43,680 bases of DNA from Deltaproteobacteria bacterium. GTDB taxonomy: Bacteria > Myxococcota_A > UBA9160 > SMWR01. Of this stretch, positions 2,469 through 27,887 are shown piece after piece. The stretch spans positions 1-43,680 of the forward strand of contig JAHEEJ010000001.1 of NCBI GenBank assembly GCA_024640705.1. Reading direction: 5' to 3'. Position 1 is the stretch's first letter, and every line of letters begins with the position of its first letter. The notes beneath the pieces were generated by a model that saw nothing but the letters and a program-made list of their open reading frames with translations, made no database searches and was not told where the DNA came from. Made by a program: the position numbers and the translations under genes.

Positions 2469-4904
2469 TCAGCGTACCGGTTGCAACCGCCAGGTCTGCT
2501 CGGCGTACTCGCGTACCGTGCGATCGCTCGAGAAGCGGCCGATCCGAGCCACGTTCAGCGCGGCGCGGCGCGCCCAACCGTGGGTGTCGGTGAAATCGCG
2601 CTCGACCCGATGTTGCGTCGCCACGTAGGCGTCGAAGTCCGCCAGGTGGTAGAAGACGTCGCCGTGCTCGACGAGTGCGGCAAAGATCGACTGAAACAGA
2701 TCCGGCCCATCCGATGAGAAGCGTCCGTCGCGCAGCGCGTCGAGTGCGCGACGCAGCTCCGGCGAGGACTCGTAGATCTTCCGGGGGTCATATGCCGCTC
2801 GAGCCTCGAGATCCTCGATCTCTTCGGTGCGCAAGCCGAAGATGTAGATGTTTTCTTCGCCCACCGCGTCGCGGATCTCGATGTTTGCACCATCGAGCGT
2901 ACCGATCGTCACGGCGCCGTTGAGTGCGAGTTTCATGTTTCCCGTACCCGAGGCCTCGCGTCCAGCGGTGGAGATCTGCTCCGACAGGTCGGCCGCCGGG
3001 ATGATGCGCTCGGCGAGCGACACGCTGTAGTCGGGCAGGAATGCCACGCGCAGTCGGCCCTGCACGCGAGCGTCCGCGTTCACGACCCGGGCCACCTCGT
3101 TGATGAGTCGGATCACCAGCTTTGCCATTGCGTAACTCGGCGCCGCCTTGCCAGCGAAGAGGCAGGTCCTGGGCGTCTCGAGTTCGCGACCATCCTCCAC
3201 GATTGACAGATAGAGATGAATCATGTGCAGAGCCGCCAGCAGCTGGCGCTTGTACTCGTGGATTCGCTTCACCTGCACGTCGAAGAGGCTAGCCGGATCG
3301 ACTTCGATGCCGGTTTTCGCCTTCACCACTCGCGCGAGTCGCTGCTTGTTGGCGAGCTTGACGGCCAGGAAGCGTTCGCGGAATGCCGGATCCTCGATGT
3401 GGGGTTCGAGTGTCACCAGGGCATCGAGGTTGCGCACCCACTCGTCTCCGATGCGCTCGCTGACCAGCGCGGCCAGCTCGGGGTTGGCGTGCCGCAGCCA
3501 GCGCCGTGGTGTAATGCCGTTGGTCTTGTTGTGGAACTTCTCGGGCCACAATTCGTAGAAATCCGGCACGAGGCGTTTCTTCAGCAGGCGGGTGTGCAGT
3601 TCAGAGACGCCGTTCACCGCGAAACTCCCGGCGATGGCGAGGTTCGCCATTCGCGCGCGTTTCGGATCGCTCTCTTCGATGATCGACACGCGCCGCAGGC
3701 GCTCCAGATCGCCAGGCCAGCGCCCGTCGACCTGCTTCAGCAGCCGCTCGTTCACCAGCTCGATCAGCTGAAGGTGGCGAGGCAACACCCGGGCGAGCAT
3801 CGGCAGCGGCCAGCACTCGAGCGCTTCGGGAAGCAAGGTGTGGTTCGTATACGCGAAACTCTTCTCGACGAGTGCCCAGGCTGCGTCGAACGCGAAGCCC
3901 TGCTCGTCCACCAGCAGTCGCAGCAGCTCCACCACCGCAAGCGCCGGGTGGGTGTCGTTCAAATGGATCGCGACGCGCTCGGGCAGGGTCTGCGGGGGCT
4001 CGCCGGCCGCCCGGTGACGCGCACAGATGTCGCGCAGCGCGCAGGCGACGAAGAAGTACTCCTGCAGCAGGCGCAGCTCCCGACCTGATTCGTGCGAATC
4101 CGATGGATAGAGCAGCTTCGAGATGCGCTCGTAGTCGATCTTGTTGCGAAAGGCTGCCGCGTAGTCACCCCGATTGAACTGCTCGAAATCGATCTCGTCG
4201 AGTGGATGGGCGGAATAGAGCCGCAGCACGTTCACCGTGTGACCGCCGTAGCCGACGATCGGCATGTCGTGAGGGATGCCGATCAGCGCGCGCCAACCCG
4301 TCCAGGCCGCCTTTCCGCGCAAGCGGCGCCGGCGCGCGCGGCCGAACACCGGAATCAATACGGCCTGGTCGCGTCGTTCGATCAACCAGGGCGTACCGAG
4401 TGCGCGCCAGCTGTCCGGCTCTTCGCGTTGTTCGCCGTTTTCGAAACGCTGGCGGAACAGACCGTGTTCGTAGTTGATGCCGTAACCGAGTCCGGGAAGA
4501 TCGAGCGTGGCGAGCGAGTCCAGCATGCAGGCTGCGAGCCTGCCGAGTCCTCCGTTGCCCAACGCGGCGTCCGGCTCGACCTGGTCGAGATCGCTGAGGT
4601 CGACGCCGAGTTCTGCGAGCGCGCGTTCGACGACGTCGAGCAGGTCGAGGTTCAGCAGGTTGTTCGACAGAGAACGCCCGACCATGTATTCGACGGAGAG
4701 GTAGTAGACGTGTCGCGCGCGGGGTCGTGTCGCCGCGTAGCGTTCCTCGGTCGCGAACATGCGTTCGATCATCTGCTCCCGCACGGCGAGACTGGTCGCC
4801 TGGAAGAAGTCGCGCGCAGAGGCATCGCTCCAGCGTTTGCCGAGCGTGTACCGGAGCTTTCGGCGAATCAGGCTGGCCAGCTCGGTGGGTTGGGGCAGTG
4901 TCAT
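2469..4904 (-). CDS. glgP: Glycogen/alpha-glucan phosphorylase (GT35)
   Basis: 811 aa. PLP-lysine motif EASGTGNMKLALNGA. Family-typical length and N-terminal RKLRYTLGK segment. Confidence 0.95.
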   Translation of the reverse strand: MTLPQPTELASLIRRKLRYTLGKRWSDASARDFFQATSLAVREQMIERMFATEERYAATRPRARHVYYLSVEYMVGRSLSNNLLNLDLLDVVERALAELGVDLSDLDQVEPDAALGNGGLGRLAACMLDSLATLDLPGLGYGINYEHGLFRQRFENGEQREEPDSWRALGTPWLIERRDQAVLIPVFGRARRRRLRGKAAWTGWRALIGIPHDMPIVGYGGHTVNVLRLYSAHPLDEIDFEQFNRGDYAAAFRNKIDYERISKLLYPSDSHESGRELRLLQEYFFVACALRDICARHRAAGEPPQTLPERVAIHLNDTHPALAVVELLRLLVDEQGFAFDAAWALVEKSFAYTNHTLLPEALECWPLPMLARVLPRHLQLIELVNERLLKQVDGRWPGDLERLRRVSIIEESDPKRARMANLAIAGSFAVNGVSELHTRLLKKRLVPDFYELWPEKFHNKTNGITPRRWLRHANPELAALVSERIGDEWVRNLDALVTLEPHIEDPAFRERFLAVKLANKQRLARVVKAKTGIEVDPASLFDVQVKRIHEYKRQLLAALHMIHLYLSIVEDGRELETPRTCLFAGKAAPSYAMAKLVIRLINEVARVVNADARVQGRLRVAFLPDYSVSLAERIIPAADLSEQISTAGREASGTGNMKLALNGAVTIGTLDGANIEIRDAVGEENIYIFGLRTEEIEDLEARAAYDPRKIYESSPELRRALDALRDGRFSSDGPDLFQSIFAALVEHGDVFYHLADFDAYVATQHRVERDFTDTHGWARRAALNVARIGRFSSDRTVREYAEQTWRLQPVR

Positions 4905-4908
4905 GCGA

Positions 4909-7056
4909 TTACGCTCCTTTCGCGTCGGGCGGAAGAGTATCGGCTGCCCGCCCGATCTGCGGGAGCCCAGCCCGCAGCGGTGCGTCGGCCGCCAACGCCT
5001 CGAGCGTGCAGCCCATCCGCCGACACCATCCCGGGTGGCGCTCCGAGCCGATTCCGGGCAGGTGCAGCGGCTCGATCTCGCCGGCCAGATCGTCGAGCGA
5101 GACGGCTACGAGTCGAGCCGCGGTCTTTGCCAGGAACGCCGACGTCGCCCGGCACCAATCCGCCGGAGTGGGCTCGCCGTCGGGCGGAAGCAGATCCTCG
5201 GTGCGCAACCGCTCCAGCCAGGCGCTGCGCTCGGCAGCGCGTTGTTGCTGGGCGGATGCATGGTCCGATGGGTCGGCGAGTTCGCCCAGGCCATGCCGCA
5301 GCTCGAGATCGCGTCCGCGGAGCCAGCCCGAAAGCGGTGCCAGGTCGTGCGTATTGGCACTCGCGAGCGCCCGCGCGGGGATTTGCGAAGCCGGGCGGAA
5401 GCTCGTGTCCTCGCGCTCGAAGGTCAGCACCGACGAGGACAGAATCCCCCAGGAAGCCAACTCGGCGGGCAGGTCCGCCGGCACGGTGCCGAGATCCTCG
5501 CCCACCACGACAGCGCGATGGCGCTGGCTCTCGAGCGCCACCACGCCGAGCAGTTCGTCGCGCGGGTAGCGGACGTAGGCGCCTTCTGCAGCGGGGCGCC
5601 CTTGCGGGATCCAGAACAGCCGCTCGAAACCCATCACGTGATCGATTCGCAAGGCCCCGAGGTGGCGGAAGTTGTTGGCCAGCAGTCGGGCGAAAAACCG
5701 GTAGCCGTCCGCGCGAAGCGCCTGCGGGTCGAGCGGTGCGACGCCCCAATCCTGACCGTCCGCACTGAAGGCGTCCGGCGGCGCGCCGACGTGGACACCG
5801 GACGCGAATCGCCCGCCGAAACTCCAGGTGTCGGCGGAGCCCAGCGACGAGCCGACGGCCAGGTCCCCGTAGAGTCCGAGGCGCAAGCCCGCGGCGCGCC
5901 CCGTTTTGGCGGCACGGCCGAGCTGCCGGTCGAGTTCGAACTGGAGCCAACTGCGAAAATCCACCTCGCCCACGTGCTCGGCGCGGAAGCGAGCGACGGC
6001 GGCACCGCGTGCATCGCGCAGCGGAGCGGGCCACAACCGCCAGTCCGAACCGCCTTGCTGAGCTGCGATCGTTTCGAAGGTGGCGAAGTCGAGCAGCGCC
6101 TCCCCCTCGCGCTCGCGGTAGGCATCGCAGGCAGCGCGGCGCGTCGCCTGTGCTTCAGAGCACCGGTGGAGTTCGCGCAGCAGCTCCAGCTTTGCGTCGA
6201 GCACGGCGCCGTAATCGATCGCCTTCGCGCTGCGCAGCGAAGCGAGGGTCTGCCGCTTGGCGGGCGTGTCGAGCCCGGTTCGCGCGGCTTCGCAGTCGGC
6301 GAACTCCGGAACCGCTTCGACATCCAGATAGAGCGGGCTGCGAAACAGCCGACTCACCGGTCCGTACGGCGAGACTTCGTCGGCACGAGCCGGAATCGCG
6401 TGCAACGGCGGGATGCCGATGAAGTCGCCGCCCCACTCGCCGCAAAGGCGCGCCAGTGTTCCAAGGTCGCTGAGATCTCCGAAACCCCAGTGTCCGCTGC
6501 GTTCACTCCGAACGGTGTAGAGGTTGGTCCAGACGCCGAAACCGCGCGTCGCACCCAACGCCTCGGCTGCGCCGAAGGCCGTGCGCGGCACGACCCAGAG
6601 GCGCTGTTCGGCGCGGCCGCTGGCCCAGATCAGCCGGACGCAGTGAACCCCCGCGCTCGGCTGTGCGGGGAGGGGGAGGCGCAGCGGTGTCCCGGCGGGC
6701 ATGCCCGGCAGCTCGCGCTCGAGCGCGGCCTGGGTTCCGTCCTCGTGCTCGAGTTCGATGCGGATGGCCAATGCGTTGCGGGTACCCGGATGGCGCAACA
6801 GCAGCGCGGGTGTGAGTCGCGCGTGTTGCCGCCACACCTGAACGGGCTCGATCGGGGCCGAGTGCTGCTCGCGCTCGAGGGTGGCGAGCGCTCGTGCCGC
6901 GAGATCTTCGCACGAAGCGTCATGGCCCATCGCCGCGCACAAGGCTTCGCGCGTGGTGTCGCTCGTCTCGTGCCGGACACCGGCGATATCGTGAAAGACG
7001 TCCACCACGCCGAGGCGTGCAGCCAGCGCTTGCAGACACGGCCGCGTGGCGGTCAT
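4909..7056 (-). CDS. malQ: 4-alpha-glucanotransferase (amylomaltase, GH77), long form
   Basis: GH77 motifs GIPPLHA, SPYGPVSRLFRSPLYLD, GALRIDHVMGF, VVGEDLGTVP. The start overlaps the glgB stop by 4 nt (ATGA). Confidence 0.93.
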   Translation of the reverse strand: MTATRPCLQALAARLGVVDVFHDIAGVRHETSDTTREALCAAMGHDASCEDLAARALATLEREQHSAPIEPVQVWRQHARLTPALLLRHPGTRNALAIRIELEHEDGTQAALERELPGMPAGTPLRLPLPAQPSAGVHCVRLIWASGRAEQRLWVVPRTAFGAAEALGATRGFGVWTNLYTVRSERSGHWGFGDLSDLGTLARLCGEWGGDFIGIPPLHAIPARADEVSPYGPVSRLFRSPLYLDVEAVPEFADCEAARTGLDTPAKRQTLASLRSAKAIDYGAVLDAKLELLRELHRCSEAQATRRAACDAYREREGEALLDFATFETIAAQQGGSDWRLWPAPLRDARGAAVARFRAEHVGEVDFRSWLQFELDRQLGRAAKTGRAAGLRLGLYGDLAVGSSLGSADTWSFGGRFASGVHVGAPPDAFSADGQDWGVAPLDPQALRADGYRFFARLLANNFRHLGALRIDHVMGFERLFWIPQGRPAAEGAYVRYPRDELLGVVALESQRHRAVVVGEDLGTVPADLPAELASWGILSSSVLTFEREDTSFRPASQIPARALASANTHDLAPLSGWLRGRDLELRHGLGELADPSDHASAQQQRAAERSAWLERLRTEDLLPPDGEPTPADWCRATSAFLAKTAARLVAVSLDDLAGEIEPLHLPGIGSERHPGWCRRMGCTLEALAADAPLRAGLPQIGRAADTLPPDAKGA

Positions 7057-9257
7057 GTGCGTGCCGGGACCAGCACCAGCGCCGAGAGCGCGGGCAGACA
7101 GAGCCGGAGCGATTGCGGCAGACCGTGCCAGGGGATCGCTTCCGTTTCAACCAGCTCACGCGTCGATTGCCCACCGCCGCCGTAGCGGGAGGCGTCACTC
7201 GAGAGCAGCTCCCGGTAGGCGCCGCCGCTGGGCACTCCGATCCGATGGTCGAGGCGAGGCACCGGTGTCAGGTTCAGGATCACCAGCGCGTGGGCATCTC
7301 CGTCGCGACGCTGGTACGAAAGCACGGAGTTCTCCCGGTCGTTGCAGTCGATCCAGGCGAAGCCCGTCGGATCGTGATCCCAGCGCCAGAAACAGGGGCG
7401 CTCGCGATAGATTCGAGCCAGATCCTGCAGGAATTGCTGCAGCCCTCGCCGACGCGGGTCGTCCGCCAGGTGCCAGTCGAGGCTCGCGTCGAAGTTCCAT
7501 TCGTTTGCAGGACCCAGCTCGGTGCCCATGAAGGTGAGTTGCTTTCCCGGCCGCGTCCACTGGTAGGCGAGCAGCAGGCGCAACTGGGCGAAGCGCTGCG
7601 CCTCGTCTCCCGCAAATTTTGCCAGCAACGAGCCCTTGCCGTGCACGACCTCGTCGTGGGAGAGCGGCATCAGGAAGAATTCGTCGTACTCGTAGAGCAT
7701 GGCGAAGCTGAGCTCGTCGTGATGAAAGCGACGGTGGACCGGGTCCCGCTCCAGGTAGCGGAGCGTGTCGTGCATCCAACCGAGGTTCCACTTGAAGGTG
7801 AAACCGAGGCCGTCTTCGGCGACGGGGTGTGTGACGCCGCGCCAGGCGGTCGATTCTTCGGCGATCGTCATGCAGCCCGGATGCCGCTCGGCGACCAGGC
7901 TCGTGAGCTCGCGCAGAAACGCCACCGCTTCGATGTTCTCGCGGCCGCCGTAGCGATTGGGCGTCCACTCGCCCGGCTTGCGCGAGTAGTCGAGGTAGAG
8001 CATCGAAGCCACCGCGTCTACGCGCAGCCCATCCACGTGGAACTCTTCGAGCCAGTAGAGCGCATTCGCGATCAGGAAGTTCTTCACCTCCAGGCGGCCG
8101 AAGTTGAAGATCAGGGTGCCCCAATCCGGGTGTTCGGCGCGCTTGGGGTCGGCGTGCTCGTAGAGGGGGGTTCCGTCGAAGAGGCGCAGCGCCCAGTCGT
8201 CGCGCGGAAAGTGCGCAGGCACCCAGTCGAGAATCACGCCGAGGCCGTGCTGGTGGCAGTGGTCTACCAGAAATCGCAGATCGTCCGGATCGCCGTAGCG
8301 CGCGGTGGGTGCGTAGTAGCCGGTCACCTGGTAACCCCAGGACGGCGTGAAGGGATGCTCCATGACCGGCAGCAGTTCGATGTGCGTAAAGCCGAAGCGC
8401 TGCGCGTGGGCGACGAGGCGCGGGGCCAGTTCGCGGTAGCCGAGGACGCGGTTGCCGTCCTCGGGCACCCGCGCGAAAGAACCGAGGTGCACCTCGTAGA
8501 TCGCGAGTGGCTCCCGCCGCGGCTCGCGCCCGCCGCGCTCGCGGATCCAGGCGTCGTCGCCCCAGCTGTAGTGGGAGGCGTGCACGCGGGCGGCCATGGC
8601 CGACGGGTGCTCGGTCTGGCGGGCGAGCGGGTCGGCCTTCTCGCGCAGCACGCCGTCCGGTGTGCGGATCTCGAATTGGTAGAGCGCGCCCGGTTCGACA
8701 TCGGGGACGAAAAGCTCGAACACGCCGGATCCGCCCAGAGAGCGCATCGGAAACAGGCGCCCGTCCCAGGCGCAGAAGTCGCCGAGCACGCTCACTCCGG
8801 CCGCGTTGGGGGCCCAGACCGCGAATCGGACACCGTCGCTGCCATCGACACGGCACGGGTTTGCGCCGAGTGCCTCCCAAAGCCGCCAGTGTTGGCCTTC
8901 TCCGATCAAGTGCAGGTCGAGTTCACCCAGGGTCGGTGCGAATCGGTAGGGGTCGCCGCGCTCCCATTCGGCTCCGTTGGCAAAAGCAAAATGCAGCCGG
9001 TACGCGAACGGAACGGAGCGATCTGGAATGAAACCCTCGAACAGCCCCGCTGCGATGGCCGGCAGTGAAACGCGCTCACCGTCGGGCATGACACAGGCGG
9101 CACTGCGCGCCTCCGGGTGAAATGCGCGCACCAGCGCTCCAGTGCGTCCGCGCCGGGTGATGGGATGCGCTCCGAGCAGGCGGTGGGGGTCGGTGTGCCG
9201 ACCGGCCAACAGCGCATCTCGCTCGACCGCGGCAAGCGTGGAGCCGCTCGGTGTCAC
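7053..9257 (-). CDS. glgB: 1,4-alpha-glucan branching enzyme (GH13_9)
   Basis: Motifs GFTHIELLPVMEHPFTPSWGYQ, GVILDWVPAHF, VDGLRVDAVASMLY, IAEESTAW, LSHDEVVHGK. The track start is GTG at 9272. I prefer the GTG at 9257, which has a GGAGG 7 nt upstream and overlaps the glgX TGA as GTGA. Confidence 0.93.
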   Translation of the reverse strand: MTPSGSTLAAVERDALLAGRHTDPHRLLGAHPITRRGRTGALVRAFHPEARSAACVMPDGERVSLPAIAAGLFEGFIPDRSVPFAYRLHFAFANGAEWERGDPYRFAPTLGELDLHLIGEGQHWRLWEALGANPCRVDGSDGVRFAVWAPNAAGVSVLGDFCAWDGRLFPMRSLGGSGVFELFVPDVEPGALYQFEIRTPDGVLREKADPLARQTEHPSAMAARVHASHYSWGDDAWIRERGGREPRREPLAIYEVHLGSFARVPEDGNRVLGYRELAPRLVAHAQRFGFTHIELLPVMEHPFTPSWGYQVTGYYAPTARYGDPDDLRFLVDHCHQHGLGVILDWVPAHFPRDDWALRLFDGTPLYEHADPKRAEHPDWGTLIFNFGRLEVKNFLIANALYWLEEFHVDGLRVDAVASMLYLDYSRKPGEWTPNRYGGRENIEAVAFLRELTSLVAERHPGCMTIAEESTAWRGVTHPVAEDGLGFTFKWNLGWMHDTLRYLERDPVHRRFHHDELSFAMLYEYDEFFLMPLSHDEVVHGKGSLLAKFAGDEAQRFAQLRLLLAYQWTRPGKQLTFMGTELGPANEWNFDASLDWHLADDPRRRGLQQFLQDLARIYRERPCFWRWDHDPTGFAWIDCNDRENSVLSYQRRDGDAHALVILNLTPVPRLDHRIGVPSGGAYRELLSSDASRYGGGGQSTRELVETEAIPWHGLPQSLRLCLPALSALVLVPART

Positions 9258-16715: not shown

Positions 16716-19004
16716 CTAGACCATGCGAATACGGGGAGTCCCTGCGCGCGTGAGCAGGTCTTCGCGCGCTGTGCCCTCGGTCGGATAGAGCGCATATCCG
16801 AAGCTCAGCGCAATCCGGATCGGATCGTTGAGGGTGTTGTCCTTGGATATGTCGTCGGCGACTGCGCGAGCCAGCGCGTAGACGCGCTCTCCCGCCGAGT
16901 AGCCCGGGTCGGGCATGAGGATGGTAAATTCGCCCTTGCCGGTGCGGCCGATCACGTCGAAATCCCGCAGGTGATTGCGAAGCGCTTCGACGGCTCGCTG
17001 CACCACCTCGCGGGCGCGCCCCCGGCCCGTCGCATTCCGGATCTCATCGAGGTTCTCGAGCGAGCAAACCGCAATCGCGAGCGCGCCCTCGTGTTCCGAT
17101 GCGCGTGCAATTTCGTCGTCGATTCGCTTGTTCAGATAGCGCTCGTTGGGGAGGCCCGTCTCAGTCTCGAAATTTCGATATTGGCGCGCCTGGGCGTAGA
17201 AGTCCGCGTTGGTCACCGCCCGCTCGACATAGGACGCGAACTTCGTGAACAGTCCGAGGTCTTCCTGCGAAAAACGGCCAACGTAGAAGCGGTCGGCAAC
17301 GACCTTGTCGTAGATGGTGAGCGTTCCGATCACGCGGCCTTCTCGCATCAGTGGCGCTGCGATCGCGGACTGGAAGTCTGCGCGGAGTTCGCTCAGTGCG
17401 GCGTCGTCTGCGAGGTCGGCGATCAGATGGGGCGCGCGCTTCTTGATGACTTCGACGGCGATTCGCTTGTCCAGTCGGAACAACTGCTCCTGGAGTCGGC
17501 CATCTGCGGAACCGAAATAGGACCGGATCACATACCGCCGGGTTTCTTCATCCTGGATCCTGAGGATCGCGTGATCGGCTCCCAGTGCCATCGCGGCAGA
17601 CGAGGTTGCCATGCGCAGCACCTCGGCGGGATCGGTCGCGGAGATCATCCGGATTCCGGCTTCGTTGAGTGCACCCACCTTGGTGGCTTGGGAAGTCATG
17701 CTGGCTTCGCGCTCTGCGTGGGCGATCTCTTCAGCTGCCGCCGCGGCAATTTCGGACAGCGTTTCCTCGGCAGCGCGGCTGCCAGCCGCCTCGTTGCCAC
17801 CCTGGACGGATAGAACACCAAAGAGAGTATCGCCGGCAATCAGTGGAACGGCCGCGTAGGCGAGGTTGCCCTTCGCGGACCGCAAGATCGAAGGTTCTCG
17901 TGCCTGTGCGGCGGACCCATCGATGCCTCTGCCGATCTTGATCCGGTATTCGCCACCGAAACCGCCGCCTTCCAGCGAGGTCGCACTCAGTCGCAGATCC
18001 GTTTCGCCACTATCACGCAGGTAGATGGTCGCTATGCCATGGCCGACTTGTTCGGCGACGAAGAGGCAGAACGAGCGCAGTCGATCCGGAAGCGGATCTC
18101 TTCCCGACAGGATCTCCCGCACGCGCCGTACCGCGGTGTAGCGAGCGGCCTGACTCCGCAGGGCTTCGTGTTCCTGGGATCGGGCGATGATCTGGGCGTC
18201 GAGGTGTGCGAGCTGCTCGGCGAATTCGAGACTCTCATCCGAAAAGGCATCTGCCTGGGTCGAGTGGTGCAGATTGAGGACGCCGAGCACGCGGCCTTCG
18301 AAGATCAGCGGCACCGAGATGGCCGATTCGACGTCGAGGCGCTCGCGGACGATCTGGAAAGCCTGGCGATCGGCCTTGCCGCGAAGCCGGAGCGGGCGAG
18401 CGTCTGCGGCGACGCGGCCCGCAATGCCATGACCGATCGGAACCCGGATTTTGGGCCACAATTCGGGTTCGACACCCGCTGCGACCCGCACGCGAAGCTC
18501 GCGGGCAGCGTGATCCAACAACATCAGGGAGCCGCCCTCGGCACCGGTGACGGCGACGGCAATCTCGAGCACACGCGAAAAGAGTTCGTCCGCGTCGACG
18601 GTGAGGTTGTAGGACTCCACGATCTCGTGAAGCGCAGTCAGGAGATCGGCCTTGCTGTTCGGCGAGGTGCGACCGAAGCACCAGAGGAGGCGCGCGGTCA
18701 GGGGGGTGACGATCTGGACGCCTCGCTCGCTGAGGGCTGGGTGGCTCGCGGCAAAATCGCCGCTCGCGCTGGCATCAATCACGGCGTGAAGGTTCGTATC
18801 GAGAATCAGCGCGTCGAGATCGGTAGTCATGCACGCGTCCAACACGCGCGCGATGCCGGGATCGATTGCGCTGAAATGCTGCCGAATCGATTCGTCATCG
18901 GGCTCGACGATGGCGCCGATCTCGAACTCGGGATTTTCCAGCAGTGAGGGGATCAGCTGGCGCGCTTCTTCGGTTGCGCGATAGATGCCGATCCGCTTGC
19001 GCAT
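16716..19004 (-). CDS. Multi-GAF protein with C-terminal degenerate GGDEF domain (GKGEF) that retains an RxxD I-site
   Basis: 762 aa. GAF-like blocks (e.g. GGSLMLLD...VLGVLNL, LFGVLSVQGG, VIGTLTIYD). GGDEF-domain entry ETGLPNERYL. The sequence RDFDVIGRTGKGEF (16926-16967) has GKGEF in place of GGDEF. The ATG overlaps the upstream TGA by 1 nt. Confidence 0.8.
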   Translation of the reverse strand: MRKRIGIYRATEEARQLIPSLLENPEFEIGAIVEPDDESIRQHFSAIDPGIARVLDACMTTDLDALILDTNLHAVIDASASGDFAASHPALSERGVQIVTPLTARLLWCFGRTSPNSKADLLTALHEIVESYNLTVDADELFSRVLEIAVAVTGAEGGSLMLLDHAARELRVRVAAGVEPELWPKIRVPIGHGIAGRVAADARPLRLRGKADRQAFQIVRERLDVESAISVPLIFEGRVLGVLNLHHSTQADAFSDESLEFAEQLAHLDAQIIARSQEHEALRSQAARYTAVRRVREILSGRDPLPDRLRSFCLFVAEQVGHGIATIYLRDSGETDLRLSATSLEGGGFGGEYRIKIGRGIDGSAAQAREPSILRSAKGNLAYAAVPLIAGDTLFGVLSVQGGNEAAGSRAAEETLSEIAAAAAEEIAHAEREASMTSQATKVGALNEAGIRMISATDPAEVLRMATSSAAMALGADHAILRIQDEETRRYVIRSYFGSADGRLQEQLFRLDKRIAVEVIKKRAPHLIADLADDAALSELRADFQSAIAAPLMREGRVIGTLTIYDKVVADRFYVGRFSQEDLGLFTKFASYVERAVTNADFYAQARQYRNFETETGLPNERYLNKRIDDEIARASEHEGALAIAVCSLENLDEIRNATGRGRAREVVQRAVEALRNHLRDFDVIGRTGKGEFTILMPDPGYSAGERVYALARAVADDISKDNTLNDPIRIALSFGYALYPTEGTAREDLLTRAGTPRIRMV

Positions 19005-20062
19005 CAGCCGCTTTCTCCGTTGGGCTCGGGATCGAGCTGGATGGTGAGCACGAGATTCGATGTCCGGCCACTCTTGTCGCTGACGACGAGCGGGATGCGC
19101 ACGCCGCGCTCGCCACTTCGGGTGGCCTCTCCGACGGATGCAATCGAAAATTCGGAATCGAGTTGGACGGCCGCCGCCGGTTCGCCCTCGTCTTCGAGTT
19201 CGCCCCAGGGGATATCGAGCGCGGTCTGCGCGGATGCGGCCAGGTCGTCGATCAGATTGGCCTCGGGGTGCTCTTCTTCGGCGAGGATCGCGTCTTCCAT
19301 CCTGGCCGCTGCGCTGACTTCCGCAGCGGGAGCCGTCGGCGCGACCTCCTCGGCAGCGTCCATCGGCGTCGGTTCGGCAGCGGGTTCGATTGCCTCGGTC
19401 TGGATCGGTTCTGGCTGGGCCTGGAGGCCGCTGAGGCTGTCGCCGGGCTCCGCCTTGGCGTCGGTCTGGGCGGAGAACTGCTGGCCTCGCAGGCTGCGAA
19501 TCACGTGCTTGGAGAGCGTCGAAAGCGTCTGGAGGACACCCGAGTTCTCGGTCGCAATCGCCTCGAATACGGCGACTCCATTCATCCCGAGTTTCCGATG
19601 CAACTCTTCGATCGCATAGGGATCCGCTAGATCGCGCTTGTTGTATTGCAAGACGAGGGGAACGTCTTCGAGCTCGCGCCCGTAGTCGAGCAGCATCTTG
19701 CCGAGTTCGGCCAGGCTCGACGCGTTTTCTGCGATGCGCTCTCTTTGCGAATCGACCACCATCACGATGCCGTCTACCTGGTCGAGCAGCTGCTTTCGGG
19801 TGGGCGCCTGATTGGAGCCGCCCGGGACGGCGATCATTTGAATGCGGGTCTTCAACCCTCCGACTTCGCCGAGTTCGATGGCCAGGGTTTCGTATTCGAC
19901 CGCCGGATCGATCAGGGTGGCTTCGCGTTGAATCTCCCCGCGGTGATCCGCCCTGAGCTTGCGATGGATCGACTGTAGATTCGTGGTTTTGCCGGCTCCG
20001 TCGATCCCCCAGTAGAGGATTCGCGCGTTTACCGCGGTCTCGTCGGAGTTCATCTTGGCCAT
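19004..20062 (-). CDS. MglA-like Ras-superfamily small GTPase with a ~160-aa acidic C-terminal extension
   Basis: Start re-called to the ATG at 20062 (MAKMNSDETAVNARILYWG). P-loop GIDGAGKTT, LQYNKRD (NKxD), AVPGG in place of the MglA TVPGQ. Collinear with MglA as I remember it, over about residues 1-190. Confidence 0.8.
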   Translation of the reverse strand: MAKMNSDETAVNARILYWGIDGAGKTTNLQSIHRKLRADHRGEIQREATLIDPAVEYETLAIELGEVGGLKTRIQMIAVPGGSNQAPTRKQLLDQVDGIVMVVDSQRERIAENASSLAELGKMLLDYGRELEDVPLVLQYNKRDLADPYAIEELHRKLGMNGVAVFEAIATENSGVLQTLSTLSKHVIRSLRGQQFSAQTDAKAEPGDSLSGLQAQPEPIQTEAIEPAAEPTPMDAAEEVAPTAPAAEVSAAARMEDAILAEEEHPEANLIDDLAASAQTALDIPWGELEDEGEPAAAVQLDSEFSIASVGEATRSGERGVRIPLVVSDKSGRTSNLVLTIQLDPEPNGESG

Positions 20063-21168
20063 CAGACCTTCCCCTTCCTGGACAATATGCGGCGGGCGTG
20101 AGTGGAAATGACTCGCGAAACGTCTCGGCTTCGCATCAAATTGCGCAGATCCTTGTCCTGTAGGTAATTGACGAATTTCACCGCCATCGACTGCGGGCAC
20201 TTGGGGTTCGCGGCGAGGGCCAGTTTGATCTGGTAGTTGCGCGTCCAATCCTTGTTCATCGCAATTACGCGATACACCTCATCGCAGACGTTGCGCGACT
20301 GCGCGATCGCGATGATTTCGGACTCGGTGATCTTGGGGCTGGTGGCCACCGAAATTGCGACGAGTTTGTTGCGATCCCGTACGAGCAGACTGCGCGCCTC
20401 CTTGTTTCCCATTCGGCCGATCTGGATCTTCTGGAAGACGGTCATCTGCTGGACCAGCTGGAAGAGGTTGCCCTGCTGGAGTTCCTGGATCTGTTCCTCG
20501 GTAATGTCCTCGCCCTTCTCCTCGACGAGTTGTTTGACGTAGTGGCCCATTTCGTCGCCGAGTACCGCGCGCAGCGCGGCTTCGGCTTCCTGGTCGGTGA
20601 TTGCCGATTCGTCGCGCTGTCCGTCGAGATTCTCGGCGACTTCACTCGCTCCGATGAAATTGAGGATCCGCTCGATGACTGCGCGCCCCGTGAGGGGATT
20701 GGTGCCGAGCGCATCGACGATCTCGGGTGCGCGCAGTATGCGGTCCTGATTGTTCGAGATGATCTCCACGACCTTCTTGTGCGGCGAGGCGGCGAGCTTT
20801 GCAATCGTCGCATCGTCGGTCGCGGGGTTGAGGGCGATCATTTCGAGCTGGTCGGATTTGTCCGCGCGGCAGCCTGCAAAAAACGAGAGCAGGGCTGGAT
20901 GGCTCGGGCCGCTCAGCACGGCGTTCGTGATGGTTGCGGGCAGACTTTCGAGACTGTCGCGCGCGGTCGATTTGACTTCGGCGTCCGGATCGTGTGTCAG
21001 TGCGAAGAGCACGGTGGCGAGTTCGATTGCGGGCAGGGGCAGGGCGCCTTTCGCCGCCATCAGGCGCGTGTCTCGCGGAGCGTCCTGCCGCGCATAGCGC
21101 TCTGCGCGCTTGGACAGGGTCAAGCGGATCTTTTTCGCCTGTCGCTCCATTGACGCGCTTCCCCGCAT
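20062..21168 (-). CDS. All-alpha helical-repeat protein (HEAT/LRV-like), function unknown
   Basis: 368 aa. Recurrent helix-turn units containing NPxT/NPKCP turns (ALNPATDDATIAKLAASP, LGTNPLTGRAVIERIL, LAANPKCPQSMAVKFV). An alternative start is the ATG at 21150 (MERQAKK), with GGGGAAG upstream. Confidence 0.6.
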   Translation of the reverse strand: MRGSASMERQAKKIRLTLSKRAERYARQDAPRDTRLMAAKGALPLPAIELATVLFALTHDPDAEVKSTARDSLESLPATITNAVLSGPSHPALLSFFAGCRADKSDQLEMIALNPATDDATIAKLAASPHKKVVEIISNNQDRILRAPEIVDALGTNPLTGRAVIERILNFIGASEVAENLDGQRDESAITDQEAEAALRAVLGDEMGHYVKQLVEEKGEDITEEQIQELQQGNLFQLVQQMTVFQKIQIGRMGNKEARSLLVRDRNKLVAISVATSPKITESEIIAIAQSRNVCDEVYRVIAMNKDWTRNYQIKLALAANPKCPQSMAVKFVNYLQDKDLRNLMRSRDVSRVISTHARRILSRKGKV

Positions 21169-21221: not shown

Positions 21222-23276
21222 CTATGCACCCTCCGCCGCGGCGGTCCCGACCTCGGCGATGACCTTCTCTTTGATGTGACTCGGTGCTTCGTCGTAATGG
21301 GAGAACTCCATGTGGAATTCCCCCTGTCCTCCGGTCATGCTCGTCAGCTGGCTCGCGTACTCGAGCATCTCTGACATCGGCACTTGTGCCTGGATGACCT
21401 GAGTCGAACCTTTCGCTTCACTCGATTGGACCCGGCCGCGCCGGCTCGAGAGATCCCCCATGATGTCGCCCACGAAGGTTCCCGGGATCGAGACTTCGAC
21501 GTCCATCACGGGCTCGAGCAGGACCGGTTTCGCCTTCTGGACGGCCGCCTTGAGGCCAAAAGACCCCGCAAGCTTGAACGCCATCTCGTTCGAGTCCACG
21601 GCGTGGTGTTTGCCATCGATGCAGTGGACCCGGACATCGACGACCGGGTAGCCGGCGAGGGGTCCGGCCTCGCAGGCCGCGTAGATCCCCTTCTCGACAG
21701 CCGGGATCAGGCTCCTGGGGATGGAGCCGCCCTTGATTTCGTCCACGAACTCGATTCCTTCCCCGCGGGGCTTCGGCTCGACGGTGAGGTAACAGACGCC
21801 GAACATCCCCTTGCCTCCGGTCTGCTTCTTGAGCTTTCCCTCTACGTTCTCGGCTCGGCGCGTGATGGTCTCGCGGTAGGGGACCTTCGGTCTCTTCAGC
21901 TCGACATCGACCCCGAACAAGCGTTGTAGTTTTTGCATCGTGATCCGGACGTGAAGCTCGCCCATCCCGGTGAGAAGGAACTCGCCGGTGGAGGCTTCTC
22001 GGCCGAGGTGGAGGGTCGGATCTTCCTCCACGAGTCGGCCGAGCGAGGCGTAAACTTTATCCTCATCCCCCTTTGATTTCGCTGAGATGGCGTATGAAAT
22101 GACACCCTGCGGAATCGGGATCTCACGCAGCGTGGGGGCGCCTTTTTCCGCCGTGAGCACGTCTCCCGTGTGGGTGTCCTTGAGCTTCGCAACGGCGACG
22201 ATGTCGCCCGGGCCGGCTGAATCGACTTCCACGTGTTCGATGCCCCGCAGCAGCTGGAGCTTGCCGAAGCGCTCCCGCTGATCTCGCGTGGGGTTCAGCA
22301 CGTTCGAGTCCGAGTGCGCGGTTCCGGAGACCACCCGAAACACCGACAGTGCCCCCGCGTAGCGATCGATGACGGTCTTGAATACCACTGCCGCAAACGG
22401 CGCATCGGGATCGGCGGCCACGGGTTCACCGTTGGCATCCTTCCAGGGCCTGCGGTCGGCGGCCGAAGGCAGCAGTTGAATGGCCCCCTGCATGAGCGTT
22501 TCGACGCCGAGTTCCGAGAGCGCCGCGCCACAGAAGACCGGCGTCACCTGACGGCCGTGGGTCGCGATGACGAGGCCCTTTGCGACTTCCGCATCCGTGA
22601 GTTCGCCCTCTTCGAGGTATTTCTCGAGCAGGGAATCGTCGCACTCGGCTACGGCCTCGACGAGTTGCGCGCGTGCGTCGGCGGCCGCTTCTGCGAGTTC
22701 GCTCGGGATCTCCGATTCTCCGGACGCAGTCATCGCCTTCATCTTCAGCAGGTCGATGACGCCCTTGAAGTCGTCGCCGTGGCCGATCGGCAGGCTGACG
22801 GCCACCGGATTGGCACCCAACTGCTTCAGTGCGTCGATCATGGCCGGGAAGTCACTTCGCTCTTTGTCCAATGCGTTGACGAACGCGAGCAGCGGAATCT
22901 CCTTCGATCGACAGAATTTCCACATGCGCTGGGTTCCCACCTTGGGTCCGGAGGCCGCGGACACCAGCAGGATCGCTCCGTCGAGCGCGCAGAGTGCAAT
23001 GCGTCCGTCGGCCTGGAAATTGGAATCCCCTGGAGTGTCGACGAGCGTGAGGTGCTTGCCCGACCATTCGAAGCCGAAGACGGATGAGGTCAGGGTGGAC
23101 TGGCGCTCCTTCTCCTCGGGAAGCGTGCTCAGGTGTGAGGTCCCTTCGGTGACGATTCCCAACGAGGTGGTCGCGCCCGCGCGATGCAGGATGGCTTCGC
23201 CGAGCGAAGTCTTGCCATCGCCTGTGTGTCCGATCAGTGCAAAGCAGTGGGTATCGTTGACCTTCACGTCTTTCAT
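21222..23276 (-). CDS. Elongation factor G paralogue (EF-G II-like translational GTPase)
   Basis: 684 aa with EF-G domain order. G1 GHTGDGKTS, G3 DTPGDSNF, G4 NALD. Domain IV/V segments (GMGELHV, HAVDSNEMAFK). GAAGGAGG RBS. Confidence 0.88.
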   Translation of the reverse strand: MKDVKVNDTHCFALIGHTGDGKTSLGEAILHRAGATTSLGIVTEGTSHLSTLPEEKERQSTLTSSVFGFEWSGKHLTLVDTPGDSNFQADGRIALCALDGAILLVSAASGPKVGTQRMWKFCRSKEIPLLAFVNALDKERSDFPAMIDALKQLGANPVAVSLPIGHGDDFKGVIDLLKMKAMTASGESEIPSELAEAAADARAQLVEAVAECDDSLLEKYLEEGELTDAEVAKGLVIATHGRQVTPVFCGAALSELGVETLMQGAIQLLPSAADRRPWKDANGEPVAADPDAPFAAVVFKTVIDRYAGALSVFRVVSGTAHSDSNVLNPTRDQRERFGKLQLLRGIEHVEVDSAGPGDIVAVAKLKDTHTGDVLTAEKGAPTLREIPIPQGVISYAISAKSKGDEDKVYASLGRLVEEDPTLHLGREASTGEFLLTGMGELHVRITMQKLQRLFGVDVELKRPKVPYRETITRRAENVEGKLKKQTGGKGMFGVCYLTVEPKPRGEGIEFVDEIKGGSIPRSLIPAVEKGIYAACEAGPLAGYPVVDVRVHCIDGKHHAVDSNEMAFKLAGSFGLKAAVQKAKPVLLEPVMDVEVSIPGTFVGDIMGDLSSRRGRVQSSEAKGSTQVIQAQVPMSEMLEYASQLTSMTGGQGEFHMEFSHYDEAPSHIKEKVIAEVGTAAAEGA

Positions 23277-26165: not shown

Positions 26166-27641
26166 TCAGCCCTCCTCGGGCTCGGACTTCATCCTGCGGA
26201 TCTCTTCCTGGATCAGGGTTTCGGCCATCCGCGGGATGACCTCCCAGGCGATCGATTCGACCCGCTCCACCGACTGGCGGACGATCGCTTCCGTGAGTTC
26301 CCCGAAAGACTCCCAGGCAATCTTCTCCAGGGTGTCGTGGAGTTGCTGGCGCAATTCGGGCCCGATCGACGCCATCAGCGCTTCCGCCCGATCGGCGGCC
26401 GGCTCGGCAGCCTTGCCCGGAGCGGGCGCTGCGTAGAGGTCGGCGGCGATATCGGCGGGCGCCTCTTCGACCACCGCGACTGCGACGGGCTCGACCGGTG
26501 GCGGCGCGCTAAAGCCCTCGTATACCGGGTCATGGCTCACGACCGTGGTGAGGTCGCTCGCGAGCGGGGCCGATTCGAACGGGTCCGTATCCGCTCCCGC
26601 ATTGGTTTCGGGCAGCGCTTCGGGAGCCAGCACCGTCATCTCCGCTTCATCCGCGCGGGGCGTCTCGATCGGAGGCGAGCTGGGCCGGGTATCGGTGATC
26701 GGCGGCCCGAGATCGGATGACGAGACGTCGTAGCCGGATGCGCCGAGCGGATCGATCACGGTGGCGTGCGCAAAGTCATTGGCATCCACAGGCGGCACCA
26801 GGTCGAGATCGGCGAGCGGATCGGTCGGGTTTTCCGCAAGCGCGAAGTCGAAGGGCTGGTCACCGCTGCGGCTGGCGTCCGGGGCCAGCGAATCGTCGAG
26901 GCCATCGTCATCGAGGACCAGATCCGCTGCGGCGGTGGGCGCCGGTTCGAGTTCGACGCCGAACGGAACGGCGTTGCCGAACGAGCTGGCGGCATCGACA
27001 GCGACGGGTTCCGCCTGGATCGCGACTGCCGGCGTGACGGGCGCCGGTTTTTTCGGCACCGCTGCGGGCGCGCCGAGGTCGTCGTCGCCGAAGGAGAAAT
27101 CGCTGGCAGGATCCTGGAACTCGAGATCGCTTCCATCGTCGAGAGAGGTCTGCGCGGGCGTGATGTCGGGCGCGCCCATCTCGTCGTCGAAAAAGTCGAA
27201 AGCGCCTGCATCATCAGCCAGATCGGGCTGCGATTCTACGGCAGGTGCTGGAGTCGGTCGCGGGCTTGCCGCGGTTGCTTCGATCAGGCTTCGGACCTGG
27301 GCGACGAGGGATTGCGCTTCGAAGGGTTTGGCGATGTGGCCCGCCGAGCCCACGCTGCGCGCGCGCGGCTCGTCGAAGGCTTCGAACGTTCCGGTCAGCA
27401 GCAACACCGGAATGTGCGCGAGCTCGGGATTGGCTTTGATGGCCGCGCAGACCTCGTAGCCGTTCTTGCCGGGCATCACGACATCCGCGAGCACGATGTC
27501 GGGGCGGAGTTCCTGGGTCTTGATGATCGCATCGTCGCCGTTGTCGACGGTCACGACGGTGGCGTCTTCGCTGGCGAAGCTGATCGCCACGACCTTCTGG
27601 ATCGTGACGCTGTCGTCAGCCAATAAAATCGTCTTCGGCAT
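26166..27641 (-). CDS. Response regulator: receiver domain + long acidic/Pro-rich linker + conserved C-terminal helical tail (RomR-like architecture)
   Basis: Start re-called to the ATG at 27641 (MPKTILLADDSVTIQK), with a G-rich RBS. Receiver motifs LLADD, LADVVMPGKNGYE, LLLTGTFEAFDE, AKPFE. A ~300-aa low-complexity D/E/P/A linker follows. The C-terminus has a duplicated IAWE motif (EKIAWESFGELTEAIV / ESIAWEVIPRMAETLIQEEIRR). Confidence 0.7.
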   Translation of the reverse strand: MPKTILLADDSVTIQKVVAISFASEDATVVTVDNGDDAIIKTQELRPDIVLADVVMPGKNGYEVCAAIKANPELAHIPVLLLTGTFEAFDEPRARSVGSAGHIAKPFEAQSLVAQVRSLIEATAASPRPTPAPAVESQPDLADDAGAFDFFDDEMGAPDITPAQTSLDDGSDLEFQDPASDFSFGDDDLGAPAAVPKKPAPVTPAVAIQAEPVAVDAASSFGNAVPFGVELEPAPTAAADLVLDDDGLDDSLAPDASRSGDQPFDFALAENPTDPLADLDLVPPVDANDFAHATVIDPLGASGYDVSSSDLGPPITDTRPSSPPIETPRADEAEMTVLAPEALPETNAGADTDPFESAPLASDLTTVVSHDPVYEGFSAPPPVEPVAVAVVEEAPADIAADLYAAPAPGKAAEPAADRAEALMASIGPELRQQLHDTLEKIAWESFGELTEAIVRQSVERVESIAWEVIPRMAETLIQEEIRRMKSEPEEG

Positions 27642-27887
27642 GGTCCCCCCCACAGGTGCGTGCGTCGTGCAAAACGGTGCTGCTCGGCCCAGCGCTCCTC
27701 GACATGTAGTATCGACGGCGGATCCCCTGGAATTGAATGGTTTTTTGCCCTTGTCGACCCGTGCGCGCCGAGCGGCGGGGTCAAGGCGGCTCCCCCTCAT
27801 TCCGATGAACCCTGGGGAGAGTATTCCGCCTCCGGCCGCGTGGGTCGACCGGCGGACCGGCACACCCTGTGAGGGCCCCCAGAGCGC

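Follow-up and report, generated by a model that had tools for sequence, protein, structure and literature searches.

A conserved MglA-type paralogue lacking the intrinsic catalytic residues, encoded beside a helical-repeat protein in a Deltaproteobacteria bacterium

The stretch of DNA analysed here, referred to below as the window, comprises 43,680 nucleotides of a Deltaproteobacteria bacterium (contig JAHEEJ010000001.1 of assembly GCA_024640705.1, positions 1 to 43,680). It encodes a paralogue of the small GTPase MglA in which the residues used by MglA for GTP hydrolysis are replaced, and in which the motifs for binding of guanine nucleotides are intact. We interpret this protein as a GTP-binding, hydrolysis-deficient paralogue of the Group 1 type of MglA that would be held in a fixed complex with the product of the adjacent gene, a helical-repeat protein that we call W13. 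From the sequence evidence we assign this interpretation a probability of about 0.6. The gene and the parts of its G domain that carry the argument are the following.

19004..20062, minus strand: MglA-derived paralogue of 352 amino acids (P0001), stop codon included; identified from the open reading frame (ORF) and its translation, a gap-free alignment with MglA (E = 8e-35) and more than 100 orthologues.
19478..20062, minus strand: G domain, residues 1-195; AlphaFold2 (AF2) model with a predicted local distance difference test score (pLDDT) of 80-90; best Foldseek match 6h17.
19985..20008, minus strand: P-loop GIDGAGKT, residues 19-26, with Asp21 at the site of Ras Gly12 and MglA Gly21, and with Lys25 and Thr26 intact; from alignments, with Lys25 in 62/62 close orthologues.
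19886..19918, minus strand: switch I or 'arginine-finger loop' TLIDPAVEYET, residues 49-59, with R53P, T54A and D58E; from the MglA alignment and the columns of the representative sequences, with the roles of Arg53 and Thr54 taken from PMC6876712.
19808..19831, minus strand: G3 motif and switch II AVPGGSNQ, residues 78-85, with Gly82 for the catalytic Gln82, and with Gln85 where canonical MglA has an invariant Tyr; from alignments.
19631..19642, minus strand: G4 motif NKRD, residues 141-144, which determines guanine specificity, intact; from alignments, 62/62 close orthologues.

Residues 4-192 of the paralogue align to residues 4-192 of Myxococcus xanthus MglA without a single indel (phmmer search against PDB chains; 5ymx, 6h17 and 6hjh), with 37% identity over 189 gap-free residues. 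Hence, the residue numbers of MglA can be transferred directly. The next PDB match was the MglA of Thermus (4e-34), and the best Arf protein was a far weaker match (1.5e-8). The first 14 Foldseek matches in the PDB were all MglA chains, and the best of these was MglA bound to GTPgammaS (6h17, TM score 0.88). Sequence and fold are both nearest to MglA and not to Ras, Arf or Rup, and in the tree described below the protein also groups with MglA and not with another GTPase family.

The arginine finger of M. xanthus MglA is Arg53, its Thr54 is the switch-I threonine, a ligand of Mg, that MglB brings into the active site, and the Q82L variant is unable to hydrolyse GTP (PMC6876712). Substitutions of Gly21 in MglA lower hydrolysis (PMC3983030). 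Our alignment shows that all four positions are changed in the paralogue. Switch I reads TLIDPAVEYET versus TETDRTLFFDF in M. xanthus MglA, the G3 motif AVPGGSNQ versus TVPGQVFY, and the P-loop GIDGAGKT versus GPGLCGKT, where Gly21 has become Asp. The initial annotation, made from the letters of the DNA, had noticed the replacement of Gln82 by Gly and of Arg53 by Pro. Both replacements were borne out by the gap-free phmmer alignment, and the hmmalign and MAFFT alignments also contained no indel and no Arg at position 53 or Gln at position 82. The two losses understated the change, however, because Thr54 and the Gly21 equivalent to Ras Gly12 are replaced as well, which brings the number of hydrolysis-linked residues affected to four. 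The same annotation had described the P-loop (as G19-T27) and the NKRD motif as matching MglA residue for residue. The alignment agrees, except that the GxxxxGKT motif spans residues 19-26. The G4 stretch QYNKRD is identical to that of MglA, and the VPG core of the G3 motif, without the Asp of Ras, is retained. Two hallmarks of Group 1 are absent, namely the intrinsic arginine finger beside the switch-I threonine (here Pro53-Ala54) and the sequence TVPGQ (here AVPGG). All Group 1 MglAs described have the conserved arginine finger, and Groups 2-5 have GTPGQ (PMC4316618).

The paralogue is not a decaying copy. A search of a collection of 5.8 billion proteins returned more than 100 full-length relatives of about 320-390 amino acids, with 53-92% identity, all of which came from metagenome bins of uncultured Myxococcota or 'Deltaproteobacteria' and carried generic names only. 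Among 62 close orthologues, K25, N141, K142, D144, Q85, R89 and K90 were invariant, and the NKxD motif was complete in every sequence. Pro53 was present in 58 of the 62, and position 82 was occupied by Gly (47), Ser (10), Ala (3) or Asn (2), and never by Gln. Position 54 was Thr in 40, Ala in 17 (27%) and Ser in 5 orthologues, and position 21 was D, E, S, A or Q and seldom G. The ratio of nonsynonymous to synonymous substitution rates (dN/dS) of the G domain was 0.12 in comparison with a 92%-identical orthologue (L126). All dN/dS figures given here derive from this single pair and small counts, and agree with the alignments. Purifying selection acts on the G domain and on parts of the C-terminal tail.

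How far the loss of catalytic residues extends became apparent from a HMMER search of 1.84 billion representatives (clusters at 50% identity) with residues 1-195, which gave 402 matches below 1e-30. We compared the best 150 of these 402 together with the query and two reference MglAs. All 150 were MglA-like, and in the full set 71 sequences had the degenerate signature and 82 were canonical. The consensus of the degenerate sequences is T-(R)-x-D-P-(T/S)-V-x-Y-E in switch I and (A/T)VPG(G/A)xE(H/Q) in the G3 motif. The two sets differ at the following positions (canonical, n = 82, versus degenerate, n = 71).

Position 21: Gly/Ala in 95% versus Glu/Ala/Pro/Gln/Asp.
Position 25: Lys in 100% versus Lys in 84% (lost in 16%).
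Position 26: Thr in 100% versus Thr/Ser in 79% (lost in 20%; Arg in 12%).
Position 53: Arg in 100% versus Pro in 80%.
Position 54: Thr in 98% versus Thr/Ser in 78%.
Position 58: Asp in 100% versus Glu in 68%.
Position 81: Gly in 100% versus Gly in 79%.
Position 82: Gln in 100% versus Gly in 42% and Ala in 36%, never Gln.
Position 85: Tyr in 100% versus His in 49% and Gln in 32%.
Position 142 (G4): Lys in 100% versus Lys in 71% (lost in 29%).

A tree was calculated with the 55 degenerate sequences that passed an alignment-coverage filter. It was rooted on HRas and Arf1 and was built without MglA Groups 2-5. Of these 55 sequences, 53 formed one clade that was sister to the canonical sequences and not nested in them (support 0.78), and the other two were canonical-type proteins with isolated substitutions. 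P0338 and P0326 are nested among canonical MglAs; one of them carries R53V, and the other has both R53T and Q82D. Therefore, catalytic residues of MglA have been lost independently more than once. By its sequences, the degenerate clade has a Group-1-like VPG core, yet it fits the published description of neither Group 1 nor Groups 2-5 (PMC4316618). We found no account of this clade in the literature searched on MglA pseudo-GTPases, armadillo/HEAT partners, C-terminal extensions and paralogues.

A considerable minority of the degenerate lineages has lost the P-loop Lys or the G4 Lys, and of the comparative arguments this one speaks most strongly for a GTPase cycle that selection has ceased to maintain. 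These losses indicate relaxed selection on the nucleotide cycle across the degenerate representatives, in line with a pseudo-GTPase trajectory, and the features by which a pseudo-GTPase is recognized from its sequence (a G-domain fold, absence of catalytic residues and purifying selection) are found together here. In the subfamily of the window protein itself, the nucleotide-binding motifs are fully retained. The initial annotation had predicted a GTP-binding protein that is hydrolysis-deficient or completed in trans, and the erosion of G motifs across the clade is consistent with that prediction.

The proposed partner lies directly upstream of the paralogue. We compared its surroundings in a sample of 15 loci from as many genomes of the same order and class.

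20062..21150, minus strand: W13, an all-alpha, two-lobed helical-repeat protein of 362 amino acids with a likely start Met at 21150, whose TGA overlaps the ATG of the GTPase gene; all-helical in the AF2 model and adjoining the GTPase gene in 15/15 loci.

The GTPase ORF, on the minus strand, begins at the ATG of MAKMNSD, as the initial annotation had assumed. This start is supported because the orthologues open with the same MAK(L/M)S.DE in their alignment. The ATG overlaps the TGA of the W13 ORF of 362 or 368 amino acids (TGATG; GTCTGATGGCC), and the TGA of the GTPase gene overlaps the ATG of a downstream ORF of 762 amino acids that encodes a GAF/GGDEF protein (GGCTGATGCGC). Because of these overlapping stop and start codons, the three genes are translationally coupled.

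In the AF2 model of W13, two helical-repeat lobes (residues 14-165 and 218-359) are separated by an acidic disordered linker. Its Foldseek matches were weak and of the ARM/HEAT/importin-alpha type (E above 0.03), and no Pfam or NCBIfam family matched. The dN/dS of W13 was 0.13 for the L126 pair. Of 201 genomes sampled across the phylum, 174 had a W13 homologue, among them genomes from classes without the degenerate GTPase. In another class of the same phylum (L118; G120:C2:1698-4002), an operon consists of mglB (Robl_LC7), a canonical mglA of 197 amino acids and a W13 homologue. In L050, L051 and the Thermodesulfobacteriota locus L109 (outside the lineage), the gene directly upstream of a long MglA that has the canonical RT and PGQ is a W13 homologue (E = 1e-104, 9e-63 and 7e-36, respectively). 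The pairing of W13 with MglA is therefore old, predates the catalytic loss and is independent of the catalytic state. Judging from these gene arrangements, this argues for W13 as a general partner of the MglA family that was retained after catalytic loss. Its persistence after the loss of Arg53 and Gln82 likewise argues for a binding partner (a putative effector or scaffold) that does more than position intrinsic catalytic residues in the manner of MglB.

The Arg residues conserved in W13 are shared by the homologues that accompany canonical GTPases and those that accompany degenerate ones. We therefore found no support for an Arg, Asn or Gln of W13 that would be specific to the degenerate clade and could serve as a finger in trans. 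At about residues 185-200, the otherwise disordered acidic linker of W13 contains a short motif, (E/D)xxAEAAL(R)A(V/L)LG(D/E), which is conserved in the order but not in the sister family. The sole PDB match of a W13 profile, an insignificant one (E = 1.6), was between this motif and the tail at the C-terminus of the archaeal stalk protein of the ribosome. This idea was discarded, as the motif did not covary with the adjacency of an EF-G gene.

The second addition to the G domain is a C-terminal tail of 157 amino acids (residues 196-352), of which 48% are Ala, Glu, Pro or Asp, with a net charge of -26. It consists of three parts.

19316..19477, minus strand: acidic Ala/Glu/Pro-rich linker, residues 196-249, variable in length and sequence; pLDDT below 50, indels in the alignment, dN/dS 0.71, net charge -10.
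19199..19315, minus strand: conserved helical segment, residues 250-288 (RMEDAILxExEHPE...LAASAQTALDxPW); helices 251-261 and 268-283, pLDDT about 72, dN/dS 0.15.
19025..19165, minus strand: C-terminal beta module, here called 'ct', residues 300-346 (EFSIASVGEATRSGERGVRIPLVVSDKSGRTSNLVLTIQLDP); four strands within 306-342, pLDDT about 80 (AF2).

The linker evolves in a near-neutral manner, and its residues 197-248 were modelled as disordered by AF2 with the orthologue alignment. The helical block and the last about 45 residues, which include ct, are conserved among orthologues while the linker is variable; ct showed 0 nonsynonymous versus 10 synonymous changes in the L126 pair. The initial annotation had already described the C-terminal segment as ordered-looking, in agreement with the four modelled beta strands. 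Each of 21 relatives (21/21) had a single ct module in its genome, which in every case terminated this gene, and ct was found in all full-length degenerate representatives. Its family-wide consensus is l.ivsvG.a...g....riPLvl.d..Gr...l.Lti.ld. Neither Pfam (E up to 1) nor the PDB (best E = 1.2) yielded a match for ct.

The tail had been described as absent from MglA. This holds for the MglAs of M. xanthus and Thermus, but not for the family as a whole, as Fibrobacter, Planctomycetota, Acidobacteriota and others commonly have canonical MglA-like proteins with long C-terminal tails. With a cut-off of 10 bits, a hidden Markov model (HMM) of ct, built from degenerate sequences only, detected the module in 19 of the 81 long canonical MglAs, in 13 of these 19 at the extreme C-terminus, versus 1/81 reversed and 0/81 shuffled tails. 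The tails of longer relatives contained no further domains that we could find, except for one fusion of a canonical MglA G domain with a Ser/Thr protein kinase domain (P0315, 622 amino acids). In L119 (G044:C28), the ORF at 4441-7140, directly after a W13 homologue, encodes a degenerate MglA-like protein of 900 amino acids with a tail of 692 amino acids that lacks Pfam domains and ends in ct. Three Arg of ct (R315, R319 and R322) are present in 61-62 of the 62 close orthologues. The idea that the tail supplies an arginine finger was rejected, because these Arg are conserved only in the close subfamily, and ct also occurs in canonical MglAs with a finger of their own.

The pair of W13 and the GTPase is embedded in a conserved locus with the order nadC-birA-coaX-[EF-G paralogue]-W13-GTPase-[GAF x3 degenerate GGDEF]. 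The neighbouring genes of interest in the window are the following.

16716..19004, minus strand: downstream coupled gene of 762 amino acids with three GAF domains and a degenerate GGDEF domain (GGDEF part about 16716-17300); adjacent in 12/15 loci.
21222..23276, minus strand: upstream EF-G paralogue with DTPGDSNF, in which the catalytic His is replaced by Asp, and with NALD for NKxD; adjacent in 11/15 loci.
26166-27863, minus strand: receiver-domain protein with a long low-complexity tail and a RomR-like architecture; the receiver part is syntenic with the module, upstream of it, in nearly all related loci.

The GGDEF domain reads GKGEF, its first metal-binding Asp is replaced by Ser and its ND by RN, and the RxxD I-site is kept as RDFD. 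Its orthologues have GVGEF, GAGEF, DEAEF or DRDEF, and also keep R[DE]FD. These sequences indicate that the triple-GAF protein is likely a receptor of cyclic di-GMP (c-di-GMP) and not a cyclase. The Thermodesulfobacteriota locus L109 also contains an EF-G paralogue without the His (DTPGDANF, NKID), which is encoded upstream of its W13-like gene.

The same genome contains a canonical mglB-mglA pair (TETERTLFF, TVPGQ) on a separate contig (C261), and hence the paralogue works beside the standard switch and not instead of it. The single Robl_LC7 (Roadblock/MglB) gene of the genome adjoins the canonical mglA and not the paralogue, although an assembly that is 88% complete may lack a second copy. 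The paralogue therefore appears to be without a dedicated MglB-type GTPase-activating protein (GAP).

Taken together, we propose the following mechanism. The protein, which retains GxxxxGKT, NKRD and the acidic character of position 58, would still bind guanine nucleotide and would have lost hydrolysis by the MglA mechanism through R53P, T54A (the threonine that senses Mg and the gamma-phosphate), Q82G and G21D. It would then be a constitutively loaded, non-cycling G protein, that is, a pseudo-GTPase and not a timer switch. The conserved surfaces of the former switches may hold a stoichiometric complex with the co-translated alpha-solenoid W13, which the tail, with its acidic linker, helices and beta module, may tether, target or anchor. 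This complex would be co-expressed with the degenerate EF-G paralogue and with the GAF/degenerate-GGDEF protein, whose I-site is of the c-di-GMP-receptor type, so that the module would read c-di-GMP and GAF ligands and not a GTPase clock. It would run in parallel to the canonical MglA/MglB switch of the cell, possibly with a role in polarity.

Several observations weigh against this mechanism. In Rap with its RapGAP and in the GTPases that have a hydrophobic amino acid substituted for the catalytic glutamine (HAS-GTPases), catalytic groups are supplied from elsewhere, and a missing intrinsic Gln or Arg is hence no proof that hydrolysis is absent. Gln85 is invariant in the close orthologues, and of the 71 degenerate representatives 81% have His or Gln at this position. 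This residue could act in catalysis from a displaced site. Arg50, three residues before the lost Arg53, is present in 52% of the degenerate representatives (T-R-x-D-P), and could be a shifted finger in other lineages; the window protein has Leu50. Both switch regions are very strongly conserved, as would also be expected of a genuine conformational switch. Furthermore, gene order is the one basis on which we infer the complex with W13.

In an alternative explanation, which we consider unlikely, the protein is a true GTPase switch. Its arginine finger would be supplied by W13, by Arg315, Arg319 or Arg322 of the tail or by another GAP, and Gln85 or an Asn or Gln of the partner would position the water molecule, as in Rap and RapGAP. 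The intact G1 and G4 motifs, the almost invariant switches I and II among orthologues, the conservation of Gln85 and of the three Arg of ct, and the many invariant Arg and Asn residues of W13 are in line with this explanation. However, parts of the degenerate set have lost the P-loop Lys (16%) or the G4 Lys (29%), which is hard to square with an obligatory cycle, and Thr54 (replaced by Ala in over a quarter of the close orthologues) and Gly81 are themselves variable. Moreover, neither proposed source of the finger is particular to the degenerate proteins. The Arg residues of ct are not kept across the wider module, and both ct and the conserved Arg residues of W13 accompany canonical MglAs.

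Alternatively, the G domain might be a structural platform without nucleotide in vivo, which makes its contacts through the tail and the surfaces of the former switches. This nucleotide-independent scaffold would be consistent with the many degenerate representatives in which Lys25, Ser/Thr26 or NKxD is lost (GKR, GKL, GIT, GLS and GAS in the P-loop; NHxD and NRxD in G4). In the window protein and all 62 close orthologues, however, GxxxxGK(T/S) and NKxD are retained, which is unexpected if nucleotide binding is dispensable, and we consider this explanation improbable. Very improbable is a decoy, a permanently 'on-like' mimic of MglA that titrates a guanine nucleotide exchange factor of the RomR/RomX type, MglB or effectors and thereby tunes polarity: the canonical mglBA in the same genome, the syntenic RomR-like response regulator and the linkage of W13 homologues to canonical mglBA in another lineage would suit it, but residues 56-59 of switch I, which face effectors and MglB, have changed so strongly (FFDF to EYET here, S/T-Y-E-V in the degenerate consensus) that binding of the same partners is doubtful.

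MglA is the model Ras-like polarity switch of bacteria, and its survey holds that the arginine finger is conserved in all Group 1 proteins (PMC4316618). A large sister clade under purifying selection that lacks both this Arg and the catalytic Gln, that in some of its lineages also lacks the P-loop Lys, and that retains a dedicated partner, would provide a natural bacterial example of a pseudo-GTPase. On comparative grounds, the degenerate branch appears to be an undescribed, conserved and catalytically stripped part of the MglA family, whose function we infer from its sequences and its partner. Two elements of MglA biology that have not been described also emerge from our results, namely the W13 family of helical-repeat proteins and the beta module at the C-terminus of long MglAs. 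Should W13 and MglA indeed interact, this could uncover a so far missing regulator or effector of canonical MglA as well. A more far-reaching idea, which we regard as speculative and on balance rather unlikely, is that W13 and MglA-ct form an ancient and undescribed two-protein core of signalling by MglA, which takes the form of mglB-mglA-W13 or of W13 followed by a long MglA in several phyla. This lineage would then have an all-'dead' version of it (EF-G without His, MglA without Arg and Gln, GGDEF without active site), acting as a sensor of nucleotides or second messengers or as a polar scaffold in which binding replaces catalysis, with ct as a new targeting or autoregulatory domain.

Among known systems, Group 1 MglA of M. 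xanthus and Thermus thermophilus (5ymx, 6h17, 3t12) is closest in sequence and fold, and shares the xVPGx form of the G3 motif, the acidic residue 58 and QYNKRD with the paralogue. In contrast to these proteins, the paralogue has no arginine finger, switch-I Thr, catalytic Gln, Gly21 or cognate MglB, and it has gained the tail of 157 amino acids with its terminal beta module and the coupled W13 gene. The eukaryotic pseudo-GTPases of the Rnd group and RhoH offer another parallel. They have kept nucleotide binding with substitutions at the equivalents of Gly12 and Gln61, are constitutively bound and are controlled by expression or by partners. The bacterial clade differs from them by its independent origin in a different subfamily, and it also includes lineages that lose the P-loop Lys.

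SofG is a second MglA-family GTPase in a myxobacterium, M. xanthus, that, like the paralogue, has extended its sequence, in this case at the N-terminus. The paralogue lacks such an N-terminal extension, as its G domain starts from about residue 10, and it has Pro at position 53. Conversely, SofG of M. xanthus kept the arginine finger and is active as a GTPase in vitro (PMC4316618), and its hydrolysis is not stimulated by MglB.

The invasive-pole hub of Bdellovibrio bacteriovorus consists of MglA with a Ser at position 21, the tetratricopeptide repeat (TPR) protein Bd2492, RomR and CdgA, which has a degenerate GVNEF (PMC3983030). The natural Ser21 of this MglA was interpreted as GTP-locking (PMC3983030). 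Both systems thus combine an MglA-type protein predicted to be GTP-locked (position 21 changed, no MglB) with a helical-repeat partner, a degenerate GGDEF protein and a RomR-like regulator nearby. There are also differences. The MglA of Bdellovibrio keeps R53 and Q82 and is the sole MglA in the cell, and its hub genes are dispersed where those of the window are operonic. Bd2492 is a TPR protein, whereas W13 has no TPR match. The likeness is one of component types, known here from the genes. All four component types (the MglA-like protein, W13, the degenerate GGDEF protein with RxxD and the receiver protein with its long tail) are syntenic within 11 kb, and the hub of Bdellovibrio may be the closest functional analogy to the module described here.

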